Origin: a virus
IMG/VR virus record: IMGVR_UViG_3300023174_000112
Coordinates: 26,133 to 90,132 of that record
Direction: 5' to 3' (one strand)
DNA: 64,000 nucleotides
The position numbers and the translations under genes are program-made. Under the pieces are notes generated by a model. The model did not search any database and had not been told where the DNA came from. It worked only from the letters and a program-made list of their open reading frames with translations. Positions 3,001 through 59,110 of this stretch are shown piece after piece; within the stretch, counting starts at the first letter, position 1, and the number at the start of each line of letters is the position of its first letter.

Positions 3001-6000
3001 CCGCTGGACTAAGTTTGTCAAGCAATGTTGTATCTGCACTCAATGTCACAGGTGACATTGCCGGTGCTAACGTAACAACACCTGGACTGATCTCAGCCAC
3101 AGGCAACGTAACTGGTGGCAACATTGTAACCAGTGCCGCTGTAAGTGCTGGTTCTGTGAGTGCAAGTGGCAATGTAACCGGTGGCAATCTGAATGCCTCA
3201 GGATTGAGTCTAAGTGGCAATGTGTTGAGTGTGATTAATAGCACTTCAAACATCACCACAACTGGCAATATTGCTGCCAACTACTTGTTGGGTAACATTG
3301 CATACGCAAATGGTTACAGTGCCAGCAAAATTTACAATGGCGTCAGCGAAGTCAACATTGGCATTGCCAACGGCAATGCCAATATCAGCATAAACGGCAG
3401 CTCAAATGTTGCTGTGTTCAGCACAAGTGGTTTGGACATCACTGGTACAATAAGTGCCAATGGTAATATCACTGGTGGCAATCTGAATGCAACCAACTTG
3501 AGCCTAAGTGGCAATGTGGTGAGTGCATTGAACATCACTGGCAATGCCACAGCAGGTAACATTATATCTGTGGCAGCTATCTCGGGGGCCAGTGTCAGCG
3601 CAAGTGGTAATGTTCAAGCAGGCAACGTCAATGCCACTGGACTGAGCCTAAGTGGCAATGTGGTGAGTGCATTGAACATCACAGGCAATGCCACAGCAGG
3701 CAACATCATATCTGTGGCAGCTATTAGTGGTGCAAGTGTCAGTGCAAGTGGCAACATCACAGGTGGCAACGTCAACACCGGTATTTTGAGCGCCACAGGC
3801 AACATTGAGGGTGGCAACATCAATGCAACCACACTGAGTGCCACAGGCAATGTCAATGGTGGCAATGTCAATACCAATAGTATTGTTGGTACCAGCACCA
3901 CAATCAAGTCCACAGGTGATTTAAATTTGAGTGCTACAGGTAATGTTGTGGTCAACAGCTACATCAACGGCGTCACAGCCCCTGTACAAGACACAGATGC
4001 AGCCAACAAAGCCTATGTTGATTCAGTTGCACAAGGACTGGATGTCAAAGCATCAGTGCTTTATGCTACAACCACTGCACTGCCTGCTTATACCTACAAC
4101 AATGGCACAGCAGGAGTAGGCGCAACCATCACTGCTAACGCATTTGGTACTTTGAGCATTGACAGCTCATCACCCAGTGCCACAAGTCGTGTGCTGATCA
4201 AGAACGAAACAGGAGCCAATGCACCTTACAACGGTATCTATTTGGTCACCAACGCTGGTGGTGCTGGTGCTGCATTTGTTCTGACTCGTGCCACTGATTT
4301 TGATAACGGATCTCCATCTGGAGAAATTCCTGGCGCATTTACTTTTGTTGAAGATGGTCCTACCAACGCCGACACTGGTTGGGTGTGTACTACCAATGCT
4401 CCAGTCACAGTGGGCACAACAAACATTGTGTTTGCTCAGTTCTCAGGTGCAGGACAATACACAGCCAACACTTCTGCTGGTTTAAGTCTAATTGGTACGC
4501 AGTTCAATGCCAAAGTTGACAACAACACCACAGCGTTTGACGTATCAGGCAATATCATTGTCAAAGCCAGTGCCAATTTGACCACACCCAACATTGGTGC
4601 TGCCACAGGTACTAGCCTAAGCACCACTGGCAACATCACTGGTGATGTGGTAATTGGTAATGTGATCAGCACAACTGGCAACGTAATTGCTGGCAATTTG
4701 AATGCTGCTGGTTTGAGTCTAAGCTCAAATGTTGTTAGTAATCTAAATGTCAGTGGCAATGTTGCTGGTTCAAATATCACAACTCCTGGATTGATCTCTG
4801 CCACAGGCAACGTCACAGGTGGTAATGTTATTACCAGCGCCGCAGTCAGTGCAGGTTCAATGAGTGCAAGCGGCAACATCACTGGTGGTAATTTGAATGC
4901 TGCTGGATTGAGTTTGTCAAGCAATGTTGTCAGCAACTTGAATGTCACAGCAAATATTGCTGGTGGCAATGTAACCACCGCTGGACTGGTTTCAGCCACA
5001 GGCAACATCACCGGCGGCAATTTAATCACCAGTGCTGCCGTCAACGCAGGCAGTGTCAGTGCAAGTGGCAATGTCAATGGTGGCAACATCATATCTGCCG
5101 CAGCAATATCAGGCGCAAGTGTTAGTGCCAGTGGCAACGTTGACGGCGGTAATGTCAATACAACAATATTGAGTGCCACAGGCAACATCATTGGCGGTAA
5201 CTTGAATGCTGCTGGATTGAGTTTGTCAAGCAATGTTGTCAGCGCATTGAATGTAACAGGCGCCATCGCTGGCGCAAATGTAACAACTCCTGGACTGATT
5301 AGTGCTACAGGCAATATCACTGGTGGCAACTTGATTACCAGTGCTGCTGTCAGTGCTGGTAGTATCAGTGCAAGTGGCAACGTTGACGGCGGTAATGTCA
5401 ATACAACAATATTGAGTGCCACTGGCAACATCACAGGTGGCAATGTCAATACTGGTATTTTGAGTGCCACAGGCAATGTTCAAGCAGGCAATGTAAATGC
5501 AACCAACTTGAGTCTGAGCGGCAATGTTGTGAGTGCATTGAATGTCACAGGCAATGCCACAGCAGGCAACGTCATATCTGTTGGTTCTGTCAGTGGTGCA
5601 AGTGTTAGTGCAAGTGGCAACATCACTGGTGGTAACGTATTAACTGGTGGATTGAGCCTGAGTGGCAATGTGTTGAGTGTTATCAACTCAACTTCAAACA
5701 TTACCACAAGTGCAAACATTGCTGCCAGCTACTTTATTGGTAATGGTAGCCAATTGACTGGAGTGTCAGCTAATACTGCCAAGAGAATTGCAAATGGCAC
5801 ATCAAACGTAGACATAGCTGTGGCCAATGGTAACATTACTACCGGTGTAAACGGCACAGCAAACGTTGTAGTAGTAGCTGACTCAGGACAATATGTTACC
5901 GGATTGATTTCAGCAAGTGGTAATGTGACCGGTGGCAACTTGATCACTGGTGCTGCGGTCAGTGCTGGTAGTGTTAGTGCAAGTGGCAACATCACTGGCG

Positions 6001-6689: not shown

Positions 6690-8774
6690 ATGACTAACAC
6701 AGTATTAATCAAACGCTCAGCCACAGCAAATGCAGTGCCCACGTCAGGGCAGTTAGCCAACGGCGAAATTGCCATAAATTACGCCGACGGCAACTTGTTT
6801 TTTAAAGATTCTGGCGGATCAGTACAAACACTGGCCAGCCAAAAATTTGTTTCAGTTTCGGGCAACATCACCGGTGGCAACGTCAACACTGGCATTGTCA
6901 GTGCCACAGGTAATGTCACAGCAGGCAATCTAAATGCTGCCGGATTGAGTTTGAGCTCAAATGTTGTTGGTGCATTGGTATCTGCCGCAAATATCACCAC
7001 AACTGCCAACATTGCAGGTGGGTATTTTATTGGCAACGGCTCACAACTGACCGGATTGCCTGCGTCATACAGCAATGCCAATGTTGCCACACTGCTCTCT
7101 AATTTTGGTTCAAACGTCATTTCAACAACTGGAAATGTCACAACTGGTAACCTGACAGTCAACGGCAACATCACTTATGTCAACAGCAATGTTGTTACCA
7201 TAAACGACAAATTTATCAATGTGGCCAACAATGCAGCCACTGCCGGTGCTGCCAATGGCGGTGGACTGGGGGTAGGCCCTGTGGACGCTGAATATGCCAC
7301 ACTTACATTCAACAATGGTACCACAGCCTGGAACACCAACATTCCACTCAGTGTCAACGGCAATGTTGCCGGCAGTTACTTTGTGGGCAATGGATCAGCG
7401 TTGACCAGTATCACAGGTGCCAATGTTACTGGTACTGTGGCCAATGCTACCTATGCGGTCAGTGCTGGTAGTGCTGGATCAGCTATCACAGCAGAACAAA
7501 TAACCTATGCCATTCAATCCAATATCACAGGAGTTGGCACACTGGGCAATTTGAGTGTGTCGGGCAACACCACAGTTGGTAACTTGAGCACTGGTGGATT
7601 TGTATCAGCCACAGGCAACATCACCGGCAGTTATTTCATTGGCAATGGTTCATTGTTAACAGGCATTGCCGTATCAAGTTATGGCAATGCCAATGTGGTG
7701 GCCAATCTTGCCGCACTGGGTAGCAATCCAATATCAACTACTGGCAACGTAACTGGTGGTAACGTATTAGGCGGAGCCAACGTTAATGCCACACTGTTTA
7801 CAGGTACCACTGTGTCAGTAACTGGCAACATCACTGGTGGTAACGTATTAGGCGGAGCCAACGTTAATGCCACAACACACACCGGTACCACTGTTTCAGT
7901 AACTGGTAATATAACTGGTGGTAATATTTTAGGTGGAGCCAACGTCAATGCCACCACACACACAGGCACTACAGTAAGTGTAACTGGTAATATCACCGGC
8001 GGTAACATATCCACTGCTGGTATATTGTCTGGAGCAAATAATTTCATAATCAACGCACCCAGCCCAAGTGCTGAAGGTGCGCAGATTGTTATGGCCTGGG
8101 CCAATATTAGTGGATTGGTTGGACAAGCCAATTCTACTTGGAATCTTGATGTTGATGCCACCAACAACTTCCGTATTTTTTATCAAAATGCCACAGGTGG
8201 TACAGCAGTTCCGATCACTATCACACAAAGTACCAATGCTATAAGCATGATTGGCGCACTGTCAGCGGCCAGTCTGTCAGTATCCACTGGCAACGTTACT
8301 TTAGGCAACATTGTCAATGCAGGCGCCAATGGGGTGGGTAATATTGGAACAGTAGGCGGATATTTCAACACTGTGTTTGCCAAAGCCACATCAGCACAAT
8401 ACGCTGACTTGGCAGAATATTACTCAGCAGACGCTGAATATGAACCTGGAACTGTGGTTAGTTTTGGTGGCGTTCAAGAAATCACAATGTGTACAGCAAT
8501 CAATGATCCACGGGTAGCCGGGGTAATATCTACAAATCCTGCGCATGTGATGAATTCAGGACTTGACAGTGAACATGTGGCCACAGTGGCTCTGACCGGG
8601 CGAGTGCCTACCTTGGTAATAGGCCCAGTATTGCCTGGTGATATGATGGTTTCAGCAGGCGGCGGCCGAGCAAAAGCCTGTGCAACTCCTGCCATGGGCA
8701 CAGTGATCGGAAAGGCCTTGCAAGCACACCCTGGTGGACAGGGTGTAATTGAAGTTGTAATTGGCAGAATATAA
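6690..8774 (+). CDS. Tail fibre with N-terminal attachment domain and C-terminal peptidase-G2-like autocleaving chaperone
   Basis: N-terminal IKRS...LANGEIAINYADGNLFFKD; same G/N repeats as fibre 1; C-terminal SAQYADLAE..GTVV..VAGVISTNPA..VALTGRVP..IGKAL. Confidence 0.8.
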   Translation: MTNTVLIKRSATANAVPTSGQLANGEIAINYADGNLFFKDSGGSVQTLASQKFVSVSGNITGGNVNTGIVSATGNVTAGNLNAAGLSLSSNVVGALVSAANITTTANIAGGYFIGNGSQLTGLPASYSNANVATLLSNFGSNVISTTGNVTTGNLTVNGNITYVNSNVVTINDKFINVANNAATAGAANGGGLGVGPVDAEYATLTFNNGTTAWNTNIPLSVNGNVAGSYFVGNGSALTSITGANVTGTVANATYAVSAGSAGSAITAEQITYAIQSNITGVGTLGNLSVSGNTTVGNLSTGGFVSATGNITGSYFIGNGSLLTGIAVSSYGNANVVANLAALGSNPISTTGNVTGGNVLGGANVNATLFTGTTVSVTGNITGGNVLGGANVNATTHTGTTVSVTGNITGGNILGGANVNATTHTGTTVSVTGNITGGNISTAGILSGANNFIINAPSPSAEGAQIVMAWANISGLVGQANSTWNLDVDATNNFRIFYQNATGGTAVPITITQSTNAISMIGALSAASLSVSTGNVTLGNIVNAGANGVGNIGTVGGYFNTVFAKATSAQYADLAEYYSADAEYEPGTVVSFGGVQEITMCTAINDPRVAGVISTNPAHVMNSGLDSEHVATVALTGRVPTLVIGPVLPGDMMVSAGGGRAKACATPAMGTVIGKALQAHPGGQGVIEVVIGRI

Positions 8775-15465: not shown

Positions 15466-15520
15466 TTGACCAATAATTCCCAAAATGCTATAATACGGAC
15501 TTAACAACAAAGGAGCCAAC
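15466..15520 (+). promoter_or_regulatory. Early sigma70 promoter repeat 1 plus GGAGCCAAC RBS
   Basis: TTGACC-aataattcccaaaatgc(17 nt)-TATAAT; aaGGAGCCAACaATG. Confidence 0.85.
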
Positions 15521-15521
15521 A

Positions 15522-15791
15522 ATGAGTGATTTAGTTACCGATTTGCACAGCGAGATGATCAACAGTGTAGCACCAAATTACAGTATCAATTATGAAGCAG
15601 AGGCTCTTGCTAGTTTTGAAGACTCAGGTTATGACTTGATGGAAGCACTTGAGACTCGTGCTACAGACTTTATTGCAGAGACAACTGGGGCAGATGTGCG
15701 CGAGGACTTGGGTGGGCTCACAGTATTTTTCCGTGGTAATACTTTGGTTGCATTTTACGATTACGAGCGATTTAAAGGGCATGTGTTCTAA
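15522..15791 (+). CDS. Hypothetical early protein
   Basis: 89-aa ORF with its own promoter and SD. Confidence 0.8.
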   Translation: MSDLVTDLHSEMINSVAPNYSINYEAEALASFEDSGYDLMEALETRATDFIAETTGADVREDLGGLTVFFRGNTLVAFYDYERFKGHVF

Positions 15792-15817: not shown

Positions 15818-15867
15818 TTGACCAATAATTGCCATTCTGCTATAATTACATATAATTTAAGGAGCCC
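15818..15867 (+). promoter_or_regulatory. Early sigma70 promoter repeat 2 plus GGAGCC RBS
   Basis: TTGACC-aataattgccattctgc(17 nt)-TATAAT; aaGGAGCCctgATG. Confidence 0.85.
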
Positions 15868-57139: not shown

Positions 57140-57213
57140 AGTACTTAGGTAGTACTTGACCAATAATTCCCAAAATGCTATAATTGTGGCTTACAAACAA
57201 ACAGGAGCCAGCC
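57140..57213 (+). promoter_or_regulatory. Early sigma70 promoter repeat 3 plus GGAGCCAGC RBS
   Basis: TTGACC 57156-17 nt-TATAAT 57179, identical to repeat 1; AGTACT-N5-AGTACT upstream. Confidence 0.85.
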
Positions 57214-57423
57214 TTGGGATATCGTGTAGTTGACACCCTAGACGTCATGCGTGACAAATACGGCCCTCGCAAGGGCTTGGAAGGCCCGTTCAACTTCAGT
57301 GGTCGTGTGTTGTATTATGACAACAAACAGGGCCAGTACTACGATCCTACTACTGACTTCTACGTAGAGCAAGCAGAAATGGATGCTATCAACACCCGTT
57401 TCTTTGAACAGTTCAAAAAGTAA
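57214..57423 (+). CDS. Hypothetical early protein (TTG start)
   Basis: SD 4-5 nt before TTG; GLEGPF..GRVLYYD..GQYYDPTTDFY. Confidence 0.75.
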   Translation: MGYRVVDTLDVMRDKYGPRKGLEGPFNFSGRVLYYDNKQGQYYDPTTDFYVEQAEMDAINTRFFEQFKK

Positions 57424-57496
57424 TACTCTAGTAGTACTTGACCAATAATTCCCAAAATGCTATAATAACCACATACAAAGCAAAAAGGAGCCAGCA
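57422..57496 (+). promoter_or_regulatory. Early sigma70 promoter repeat 4 plus GGAGCCAGC RBS
   Basis: TTGACC 57438-17 nt-TATAAT 57461, identical to repeats 1 and 3. Confidence 0.85.
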
Positions 57497-57679
57497 ATGC
57501 AGATCACCACAGCAATCAAACAAATACAAAAAGAAGCAGACTTCATGGGCATGGGCCTGTTGGAAACTTTGCAAGATATCCAAAAGCACGGCAAGATGCT
57601 TTACTGTGAAAAAACAATGGAAGCATTTGTTGTTTTTGTGCAACAAGGACAAGAACTGTTTGCCCCGGTTGACCAATAA
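57497..57679 (+). CDS. Hypothetical early protein
   Basis: 60 aa with its own promoter and SD. Confidence 0.75.
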   Translation: MQITTAIKQIQKEADFMGMGLLETLQDIQKHGKMLYCEKTMEAFVVFVQQGQELFAPVDQ

Positions 57680-57742
57680 TCCAACATTTGCTATAATAGA
57701 CACATAAACAGTAAACAACAACGCATTTCAAAGGAGCCAACA
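57669..57742 (+). promoter_or_regulatory. Early sigma70 promoter repeat 5 plus GGAGCCAAC RBS
   Basis: TTGACC-aataatccaacatttgc(17 nt)-TATAAT; aaGGAGCCAACaATG. Confidence 0.85.
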
Positions 57743-58771
57743 ATGAGTGCAATTCGAGTTATCAAAGGTGAGTATCGCAACAAACCCGTTCGCAATATCG
57801 CTTTCAATCTTGTGTCAGGTTATCAAACTGGCGCCAAAGGTAATTTTGTGACAGTAGAAAACAATGGGACATTTCCTAATTGTCCCGACACCATCCGTAT
57901 CAAAGTCAACAACATTAAAGACATCGAGTATGTCAATGGAGAAGAAGTGAGTAACAACAACACCGTGGCATTTGTTGCCCCCCAAGCAGAGACTGAAACT
58001 GAAGATCAAATTATGACTCGTATTCGCGAGCGTTTTGACATCCTGAATGAGATGACAAAGGCTTGTGTCAACGGTGACATCCGTGCTATGATTGTATCGG
58101 GTCCTCCCGGAGTGGGCAAGAGCTTTGGCGTTGAGCGCGAGATCGAAAAGGCCACACTGTTTGACAAATTAGCAGGCAAGCGCCTTCGTGCCGAAGTTGT
58201 CAAAGGTAGTGCAACACCTATTGGTTTGTATCAAACCTTGTACAAGTATTCAGATGCCAATTGTGTGTTGGTGTTTGATGACTGTGACAGCATTTTGCTC
58301 GACGACGTGGCCCTGAACTTGCTGAAGGGTGCCTTAGACAGCGGCAAGAAACGTACTATTTCATGGTTGTCAGAATCCAGTGCTCTGCGCCGTGAAGGCA
58401 TTCCTGATCGTTTCGAATTCAAAGGCAGTGTTATCTTTATCACCAACTTGAAGTTTGACACAATGAAGAGTCAAAAATTGCGTGATCACTTGGATGCATT
58501 GCAATCACGCTGTCACTATCTTGACTTGACACTGGACACCATGCGTGACAAAGTGTTGCGTATCAAACAAATTGCCAAAGACGGCGTGTTGTTTGCAGAC
58601 TATGATTTTGAAGAGTGTGTGCAAGACGAGATTGTTGAGTTCATGGAAGCCAATCAGAATCGTTTGCGTGAGATGAGCCTGCGCATGGCGCTGAAGATTG
58701 CAGACTTGCGCAAGAGCTTTTCAGGCAATTGGAAACGCATGGCAGAAACTACATGTATGAAGAGTGCCTAA
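57743..58771 (+). CDS. AAA+ family ATPase
   Basis: GPPGVGKS Walker A, VLVFDDCD Walker B, FITN sensor, ALQSR arginine finger. Confidence 0.85.
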   Translation: MSAIRVIKGEYRNKPVRNIAFNLVSGYQTGAKGNFVTVENNGTFPNCPDTIRIKVNNIKDIEYVNGEEVSNNNTVAFVAPQAETETEDQIMTRIRERFDILNEMTKACVNGDIRAMIVSGPPGVGKSFGVEREIEKATLFDKLAGKRLRAEVVKGSATPIGLYQTLYKYSDANCVLVFDDCDSILLDDVALNLLKGALDSGKKRTISWLSESSALRREGIPDRFEFKGSVIFITNLKFDTMKSQKLRDHLDALQSRCHYLDLTLDTMRDKVLRIKQIAKDGVLFADYDFEECVQDEIVEFMEANQNRLREMSLRMALKIADLRKSFSGNWKRMAETTCMKSA

Positions 58772-58772
58772 T

Positions 58773-58922
58773 ATGACAGCCTGGGACATTGTCAATCTTA
58801 TGTTTGCGTTTTTTAGTGCATACATAGCCTTGGAATGTTTCCGGTCCGGCGTAACATTTTGGGGTTGGTTTAATTTATTTGCCAGTGCCTCAAATGCGGC
58901 ATCGTTGGTTGCAAGGATCTAA
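58773..58922 (+). CDS. Small membrane protein (49 aa; not in ORF track)
   Basis: MTAWDIVNLMFAFFSAYIALECFRSGVTFWGWFNLFASASNAASLVARI. Confidence 0.55.
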   Translation: MTAWDIVNLMFAFFSAYIALECFRSGVTFWGWFNLFASASNAASLVARI

Positions 58923-58923
58923 C

Positions 58924-59013
58924 ATGGCTTGGCTTGCTGTGCTACTGTTGGTGATTGTAGGTGAGCCTTGGTTAGCATTGATGTTGGCATTTCTTATTTT
59001 GATACTTGAATAA
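58924..59013 (+). CDS. Small membrane peptide (29 aa; not in ORF track)
   Basis: MAWLAVLLLVIVGEPWLALMLAFLILILE; tight 1-nt spacing to the previous gene. Confidence 0.5.
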   Translation: MAWLAVLLLVIVGEPWLALMLAFLILILE

Positions 59014-59083
59014 GAGTTTTACCCCGGGGATTGGTTGGCTCCGCCCCGGGTTTTTACACAGGGACTTCGGTCCCTGTTTTTTT
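59014..59083 (+). ncRNA. Candidate 3'UTR-derived antisense sRNA (stem-loop plus terminator)
   Basis: cccgggg/ccccggg stem with a 14-nt loop ATTGGTTGGCTCCG complementary to the early-gene RBS GGAGCCA(A/G)C. Confidence 0.5.
59058..59083 (+). terminator. Intrinsic terminator with UUCG tetraloop
   Basis: acagggac-ttcg-gtccctgt followed by a T run. Confidence 0.9.
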
Positions 59084-59110
59084 GACTTTTGTTTTGCAAG
59101 AGTATATACT
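59082..59110 (+). promoter_or_regulatory. Sigma70-type promoter, 5 nt before ATG
   Basis: TTGACT-17 nt-TATACT-gtgtt-ATG. Confidence 0.7.

Follow-up and report, generated by a model that had tools for sequence, protein, structure and literature searches.

A hairpin loop at an operon's 3' end co-varies with the ribosome-binding site of the operon's own NrdC.10-like ATPase gene in uncultured T4-like phages

Near the end of an early phage operon, between its last gene and its terminator, lies a GC-rich hairpin with a large loop complementary to ribosome-binding sites (RBSs) of the same genome. Which sites does this loop address, one gene or many, and to what effect? The first-pass annotation proposed that it recognizes an RBS shared by all early genes. 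The window analyzed here, 64 kb long, forms the right-hand part of a 90-kb viral contig that CheckV rates as 26% complete, implying a genome of ~350 kb; matches to a UvsW-like helicase and an NrdC.10 homolog place its source among the T4-like giant phages.

The ATPase operon and its 3' element

The operon that ends in the hairpin is read from the + strand and comprises the following features:

57669..57697, + strand: early promoter that drives the ATPase operon, of sigma70 type with an extended -10 (TTGACC, 17 nt, TG-n-TATAAT; 11 of 12 matches)
57733..57741, + strand: target site GGAGCCAAC, Shine-Dalgarno (SD) plus spacer, 1 nt before the ATPase ATG; kept unchanged in every class A relative and co-varying with the seed elsewhere
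57743..58771, + strand: P-loop/AAA ATPase, 342 aa, first gene of the operon (phrog_1250, E 2.7e-84; Pfam AAA)
58773..58922, + strand: small ORF of 49 aa without a family match, variable cargo between the ATPase gene and the element
58924..59013, + strand: small hydrophobic ORF of 29 aa, last of the operon, with a similar MAW..-type peptide in relatives
59023..59050, + strand: hairpin H1, 7-bp GC stem and 14-nt loop; the stem co-varies in 76 relatives
59034..59042, + strand: GUUGGCUCC, the anti-RBS seed within the H1 loop; aligned class A relatives all carry GGTTGGCTCC, and matching seeds substitute in other classes
59058..59083, + strand: intrinsic terminator T2, 8-bp co-varying stem, UUCG loop and seven U
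59082..59110, + strand: promoter (TTGACT, 17 nt, TATACT) of the transcription unit that follows, with an overlap into the T2 T run; TTTTTGAC is conserved in relatives

Transcription probably starts near 57704, and the leader is 39 nt long and A/C-rich. Within the window, no terminator-like site separates 57743 from 59023, and the -35 hexamer TTGACT of the following promoter already begins within the T run of T2. The ATPase is a homolog of T4 NrdC.10 (36% identity, E 9e-51), and P-loop proteins of this type occur in more than 1300 phage records; a search for its function among PDB sequences and in NCBIfam returned no match. Very hydrophobic peptides of the form MAW(I/L)(G/A)V.. are conserved just 3' of the ATPase gene (window 58924-59013; L034:5034-5126, L030:2134-2220), and the remaining small ORFs between gene and element are gained and lost among relatives.

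The first-pass description of a GC hairpin with a 14-nt loop, followed by a separate UUCG terminator after the operon's last gene, agrees with the sequence. In H1, 59023-59029 (CCCGGGG) pairs with 59044-59050 (CCCCGGG) around the loop 59030-59043, ATTGGTTGGCTCCG, quoted also as AUUGGUUGGCUCCG; after a seven-base spacer comes the T2 hairpin (59058-59077, ACAGGGAC-TTCG-GTCCCTGT) with its seven T. The element region folds at -37.9 kcal/mol (z = -5.1). T2 is an intrinsic terminator with compensatory stem changes among the 76 aligned relatives (columns 56-73: UA 37, CG 26, GC 10). In the same alignment, the H1 stem reads CG 41, UA 23, UG 8 and AU 4 at columns 10-39 and includes UG in 5 at columns 9-40. 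Because such U.G intermediates would be C.A mismatches on the opposite strand, they fit a + strand RNA alone. The accompanying statement that H1 is dispensable for termination survives at the level of the family, since the T run after H1 is not conserved in relatives (CTTTAT, CTTTGTGG), but not for the window itself, where H1 is followed by TTTTT and could itself terminate.

The element comes in two builds. Most lineages carry the seed in a loop closed by a GC-rich stem; about a dozen others (L077, L089, L097, L100, L149, L161, L164/165, L173, L217, L228) have it single-stranded, adjoining the 5' side of a small hairpin. Both builds continue with a conserved U-rich spacer (YUUUA, between H1 and T2) and a terminator with a U tail. 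Whatever the cargo, the element keeps its orientation and its position directly 5' of the intrinsic terminator, while it lies anywhere from 16 to about 2100 nt beyond the ATPase stop codon, with differing small ORFs in the interval. In class A, the largest class of relatives described below, H1 stems vary round an invariant seed (CCCCGGG, CCCGGGC, CCTGGGC, CCTAGGC, GTTTGGG, GTTCGGG). One class A subgroup (L032:5470-5500, L047, L052, L062) carries an extra small hairpin adjoining the 5' side of H1, AACC-CTCCAA-GGTT, whose CUCCAA loop is a generic anti-SD-like CCUCC word. Scanned over the whole window, Rfam covariance models gave no match at the gathering score, and a tRNA scan was also empty; the best sub-threshold Rfam match over the element is STnc290, which reaches 21 bits where the gathering score is 60 (E 0.5). 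The element is a new structured RNA motif, absent from Rfam.

Everything that the first-pass annotation states about the sequence, including the complementarities reported for the window, was confirmed. GGAGCCAAC stands 1 nt ahead of an ATG both at 15512 and at 57733, and the loop word GTTGGCTCC (59034-59042) complements it exactly; GGAGCCAGC, a change tolerated through G.U pairing, precedes the starts at 57214 and 57497; GGAGCC precedes the start of gene 15870; and the 9-mer also lies inside coding sequence at 7773, 7854 and 7935, to which we add copies at 25863- and 50768-. Overall, 8 copies were found against 0.42 expected. Besides the ATPase RBS, the sites at gene starts are:

15512..15520, + strand: second perfect match GGAGCCAAC, at the RBS of the 89-aa gene 15522; possible extra target, in this lineage only
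57204..57212, + strand: GGAGCCAGC at the RBS of gene 57214, one G.U with the seed; not a conserved target, as the RBSs of homologs vary freely
57487..57495, + strand: GGAGCCAGC at the RBS of gene 57497, one G.U with the seed; likewise not a conserved target, with freely varying RBSs in homologs

When 4305 candidate start regions were ranked by duplex energy with the loop, four early starts fell within the top seven. Of the 12 terminator-like sites in the 90-kb contig, only this element has at least 8 nt complementary to an upstream RBS. Near-identical sigma70 promoters (TTGACCAATAAT..TGCTATAAT) precede all five GGAGCC leaders, and among 58 large non-overlapping ORFs GGAGCC stands at the RBS of 15870 and 57743 only.

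Two further repeats of early initiation sequences were seen. Five near-identical promoter cassettes (TTGACCAATAATTCCCAAAATGCTATAAT and close variants; 15466-15494, 15818-15846, 57156-57184, 57438-57466 and 57669-57697) are each followed by an A/C-rich leader and a GGAGCC Shine-Dalgarno, looking as if the cassette spreads or is homogenized among early genes. A 20-nt initiation region, AAAGGAGCCAACAATGAGTG, which includes the first two codons, is identical at 15509-15528 and 57730-57749, in unrelated genes 42 kb apart; leader cassettes may have recombined, or both genes may be under selection for one kind of control.

Co-variation of the ribosome-binding site and the seed

Relatives of the ATPase gene were collected in four IMG/VR scans, which yielded 304 loci in which the gene is complete, and 160 gene sequences that are unique and accompanied by a 3' element; some loci had been fetched repeatedly under different identifiers, and counts are therefore given on unique sequences where it matters. 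ATPase identity across these relatives is 72-100%, and a nucleotide search of phage GenBank sequences found no near relative. The element was located independently of the RBS, as the 36-45 nt that lead up to the first downstream intrinsic terminator.

In three quarters of the relatives (class A), the RBS is GGAGCCAAC(C) and the element (G)GTTGGCTCC is invariant. Across the 160 unique relatives the RBS 9-mer takes 21 forms, and outside class A the RBS and element words change together, as in the following pairs:

RBS GGGCTAGTAA, element TTACTAGCCC
RBS GGGCTAGAAA, element TTTCTAGCCC
RBS GGAGTTGGC, element GCCAACTCC
RBS GGAGCGAAA, element TTTCGCTCC
RBS CAGGAGCTAAC, element GTTAGCTCCTG
RBS AAGGAGCTAG, element CTAGCTCCTT
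RBS GGAGCAACA, element TGTTGCTCC
RBS CAGGAGCTAA(C), element (G)TTAGCTCCTG
RBS GGAGCAA, element TTGCTCC
RBS AGGAGCUGA, element UUAGCUCCU, paired via one G.U

In 13-15 of the 20 non-A variants, the variant's own 3' element pairs better with the RBS (7-11 bp) than the ancestral seed would (4-6 bp); three others retain the ancestral seed with a single RBS change, and two are mismatched by one base. When the elements of 17 classes were permuted among RBSs, the sum of the longest Watson-Crick helices was 142 for cognate pairs and 103 +/- 5.8 (maximum 133) for permuted ones, and none of 100,000 permutations reached the observed helix sum or, likewise, the observed duplex energy. G.U pairs between RBS and seed occur in L045, L219 and L304-type loci and at 57204 and 57487 of the window. 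On a tree of the ATPase protein, the RBS variants turn up at scattered positions between class A clades and require no fewer than 23 changes, a count that rests on a single-protein tree and that recombination could inflate; the scatter and the number of changes thus speak for many independent events. Since complementarity, unlike identity, is not inherited by descent, the matched changes of RBS and seed represent repeated compensatory events. The first-pass annotation had suggested, as a check that could refute it, a comparison of the loop with the early RBS motif in related phages; the outcome is a strong co-variation with the RBS of the ATPase gene, and the idea of pairing withstands the check. 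Together, this co-variation, the permutation result and the + strand co-variation of the H1 stem make it very likely, on comparative sequence grounds, that RBS and 3' element pair as RNA.

The relation has exceptions. In L222-L227, on contigs of up to 342 kb, the RBS AGGAGCCAG faces the loop CTAGCTCCT with a mismatch at one position (C opposite A), a pair that could be caught between two matched states or be relaxed. L173 is also mismatched, and L169/L283 and L317 show no element. In view of such mismatched or element-less lineages, the pairing is not indispensable.

Target range and alternative explanations

Does the seed serve one gene or an early regulon? As first proposed, a stable sRNA derived from the 3'UTR would act in trans on the RBSs of the whole early gene set and time the transition from early to late expression. 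The window itself agrees with this proposal in several respects: four early leaders can pair over 9 nt with the loop, two perfectly and two via one G.U; GGAGCC lies downstream of all five strong early promoters; and the element has the build of an Hfq-type sRNA (seed, U-rich spacer, terminator with U tail), the seed lying unpaired on the 5' side in about a dozen lineages, and the leaders are rich in AAC repeats. Four relatives moreover carry a terminator and a promoter between the ATPase gene and the element (see below), and in class A loci GGAGCC is found in 65 of ~160 upstream early-promoter leaders as against 0 of 23 promoters downstream of the element. The relatives nevertheless argue against a regulon-wide reach. 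Under an invariant class A seed, the homologs of 57214 and 57497 drift to varied words after GGAG (GGAGTCCAAA, GGAGTCTGGC, GGAGCACAAG, GGAACACAAG and others), and in non-A classes their RBSs do not track the seed. Each locus of classes B to E holds the target 7-mer a single time, at the ATPase RBS, and in the 43-74 kb contigs of other classes no target word was found at any other RBS. At RBSs, near-complete relatives hold 1 to 3 copies of the word in 300-350 kb: in a class A relative of 349 kb that is 97% complete, the 9-mer stands at an RBS in 3 of 19 copies, the rest being Gly-Ala-Asn codons of fibre-like genes, and in a 300-kb relative the ATPase copy is the only one at an RBS. The element itself is present once per genome in 300-350-kb relatives. 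Searches of four non-A contigs for homologs of the gene 15522 protein found none, and the few seen elsewhere have upstream sequence without the RBS word. Targeting of an RBS common to all early genes is thus not borne out, the conserved and co-varying partner being the operon's own ATPase RBS only, and with drifting RBSs at 57214 and 57497 and a non-A target word confined to the ATPase RBS, an early-to-late timer of the whole regulon lacks support; we consider it unlikely. By the same comparisons, the conserved relation is one-to-one, between the operon's first gene and the operon's 3' end, and 15512 and similar extra matches may be secondary targets in this lineage.

A different possibility is that the two 9-11-bp words act at the DNA level as an inverted repeat, be it as protein sites, recombination sites or the ends of a mobile cassette; they do flank a segment of 1.1-3 kb whose inner cargo varies among relatives. 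This we regard as very improbable, given that the left copy always lies at SD distance from the ATG with its GGAG/GGGG core kept, inside the transcription unit, and that the right copy always lies in or just 5' of a hairpin co-varying through U.G, directly before a terminator. The G.U pairs between the two sites would be mismatches in DNA, more than 20 specificities would demand more than 20 protein specificities, and the ORFs of the segment encode the ATPase and small peptides, with no transposase or recombinase seen in the cassette. That a loop close to a terminator complements a common RBS word by chance, without any function, might be suspected from the coding copies of the 9-mer in Gly-Ala-Asn repeats and from the frequency of GGAG-complementary CUCC in loops, yet the co-variation in many independent lineages, the contrast of an invariant loop with varying stems and the permutation test leave this a negligible probability. 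In L022/L034-type relatives, a minus-strand gene abutting the hairpin was considered and rejected, as small plus-strand ORFs occupy the space; the TTCAT..CTCC string there is 3' untranslated sequence.

Proposed action and relation to known systems

We propose, with a probability of roughly 0.8, that a dedicated anti-RBS element at the operon's 3' end limits translation of that operon's NrdC.10-like ATPase. The 9-11-nt seed would base-pair with the SD-to-start-codon region of the ATPase mRNA (57733-57743), mask a site that the 30S subunit requires, and thereby lower ATPase translation and probably mRNA stability. The pairing covers the SD to position -1/+1 with a calculated duplex energy of -17 to -25 kcal/mol; because such a helix is far stronger than an SD/anti-SD contact, occlusion of the 30S site would be its natural consequence. 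Its effect, judged from the position of the pairing, would be repression. As the seed is transcribed last, repression would start only after full transcription: ribosomes would load while the operon is being transcribed and be excluded once the seed is made, leaving each transcript a limited window of translation. The control would then be a delayed self-limitation of one gene, with the length of the cargo between the ATPase gene and the seed setting how long the window lasts.

Self-limitation of this kind could operate within one mRNA or between copies, and the two are not exclusive. For pairing in cis, to which we give about an even chance, speak the strict one-to-one relation and the constant placement in the same transcription unit and orientation, as well as published evidence that long-range anti-SD pairing within an mRNA works (PMC3868564, PMC12697547). 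Pairing in trans, by a released 65-nt 3' fragment acting on other copies, seems to us somewhat less probable than that; the sRNA-like build, the AAC-rich leaders and a U-rich stretch adjoining the 5' side of H1, which could be an RNase E site, agree with it. In L044, L075, L197 and L213, the stretch between ATPase gene and element includes a terminator-like hairpin as well as a new promoter, so that pairing there would be largely in trans. The inserted cassette of these loci (L044:4630-5620, L075:5020-6000; also L197, L213) contains the hairpin AACCCTGT-CTAGC-ACAGGGTT with a T run, a separate promoter (TTGACTAGTAAT..TAAACT) and a gene that begins MSYTSVDGWYDH; complementarity of the element to the ATPase RBS is retained.

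In full-mRNA and two-RNA cofolding (RNAcofold) of 57743 and 15522, the SD-loop helix is absent from the minimum-energy fold, which is uninformative because nearest-neighbour cofolding cannot place a helix in a closed hairpin loop; for 57214 and 57497, RNAcofold predicts pairing only by opening H1. A steric point weighs against the pairing: a helix of 9-11 bp within a 14-nt loop is tight. The operon's last small ORF also holds a second, partial anti-RBS word, TGTTGGC (58982-58988), and it is with this word, not with the H1 loop, that the SD region pairs in the minimum-energy fold of the full-length mRNA, a pairing that may be chance. Contigs assembled from metatranscriptomes contain parts of relatives' ATPase genes at 90-95% likeness and barely reach 59027-59077; RNA ends and strand are not resolvable in such contigs.

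The more than 20 matched RBS/seed variants might even form a specificity code between competing phages, a reading that we hold to be speculative and improbable. The 3' fragment of a resident phage would act in trans on a co-infecting relative of that phage's class and silence the relative's NrdC.10-like ATPase, and relatives with a changed RBS and a re-matched seed of their own would escape. If true, lytic giant phages would possess an RNA-based incompatibility system comparable to the heteroimmunity of P1/P7, and the switching of the pair at least 23 times within a narrow clade would have an explanation.

The closest known parallel is icaR of Staphylococcus aureus, whose 3'UTR contains an anti-SD motif that pairs with the mRNA's own SD and prevents initiation (Ruiz de los Mozos et al. 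2013, PMC3868564). The phage element shares with it a 3'-end anti-SD directed at the SD of a gene of the same mRNA, in a dedicated one-to-one relation, and complementarity of the icaR type is indeed present here (9-11 nt, co-varying). By sequence syntax, target and element lie on one RNA in most loci, the exceptions being the four with an intervening terminator-like hairpin and promoter. It differs in belonging to a phage, in a longer seed (9-11 nt, reaching the start codon) carried in a hairpin loop just before the terminator, in the extra ORFs between target and seed, and in its more than 20 matched variants. The c4 antisense RNA of phages P1/P7 is made in the same operon and not opposite its target, and its loops pair with the ribosome-binding region of a downstream gene, blocking translation (PMC12197685). 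Pairing of a loop with an RBS of the same operon, with matched changes of RNA and target that define specificity types, is common to both. Here, however, the element lies downstream, at the operon's 3' end, whereas c4 precedes its targets and is released from the leader by processing; c4 serves lysogenic immunity in temperate phages through control of an antirepressor, the present element an ATPase target in a lytic T4-like phage, and the two have no similarity in sequence or structure.

CpxQ, SroC and DapZ exemplify Hfq-dependent enterobacterial sRNAs derived from 3'UTRs, whose seeds target the ribosome-binding regions of other mRNAs. In them as in the phage element, the 3' end of an mRNA supplies a short seed and, after it, a Rho-independent terminator ending in a U tail, but they act on the mRNAs of other genes, whereas the sole conserved target here is the first gene of the parent operon. 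In Bacillus subtilis, anti-SD-like words can fold back on an RBS from a position hundreds of nucleotides downstream; initiation is then inhibited, expression falls and decay is faster (Gill et al. 2025 preprint, PMC12697547). Both cases involve pyrimidine-rich downstream words that pair with an RBS; there, such words are harmful accidents depleted from genes, whereas here a single such word is maintained by selection, follows the RBS in its evolution and sits in a dedicated structure.

How far does the element extend beyond the present clade? No such complementarity was found between the leader of T4 nrdC.10 and its downstream spacer, and the one Mosigvirus examined showed no such pairing of RBS and 3' end. 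In the Pseudomonas phage PA5oct (MK797984; L266:2140-2170 and 3320-3360), for which RNA-seq exists, the RBS region of the ATPase homolog is AGGAGTAGCAT, and a hairpin AGTAGCA-AGG-ATGCTACT 20 nt after the stop codon has a 3' arm complementary to 8 nt of the RBS. This 8-nt match, located in a stem, is too weak for PA5oct to be counted as a further case; it gives a weak hint of a related arrangement outside the lake clade. With no such pairing in T4 or Mosigvirus and only this hint from PA5oct, the element looks like an invention of this freshwater clade of uncultured T4-like phages.

To our knowledge, phylogenetically proven natural pairings of a bacterial-type mRNA's 3' end with its own RBS are very rare; icaR, the textbook case, is based on experiments in one genus. 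The phage element, which we regard as a well-supported candidate for 3'-end anti-SD control of its own operon, adds compensatory-mutation evidence more than 20 times over, in uncultured 350-kb T4-like phages. Its natural RBS/anti-RBS pairs, probably orthogonal, are candidate parts for translational control, and it suggests that evolution can turn long-range anti-SD pairing, recently shown to be a hazard avoided by genes, into a means of regulation. For the T4 family, the element points to tight dosage control of the conserved ATPase NrdC.10.
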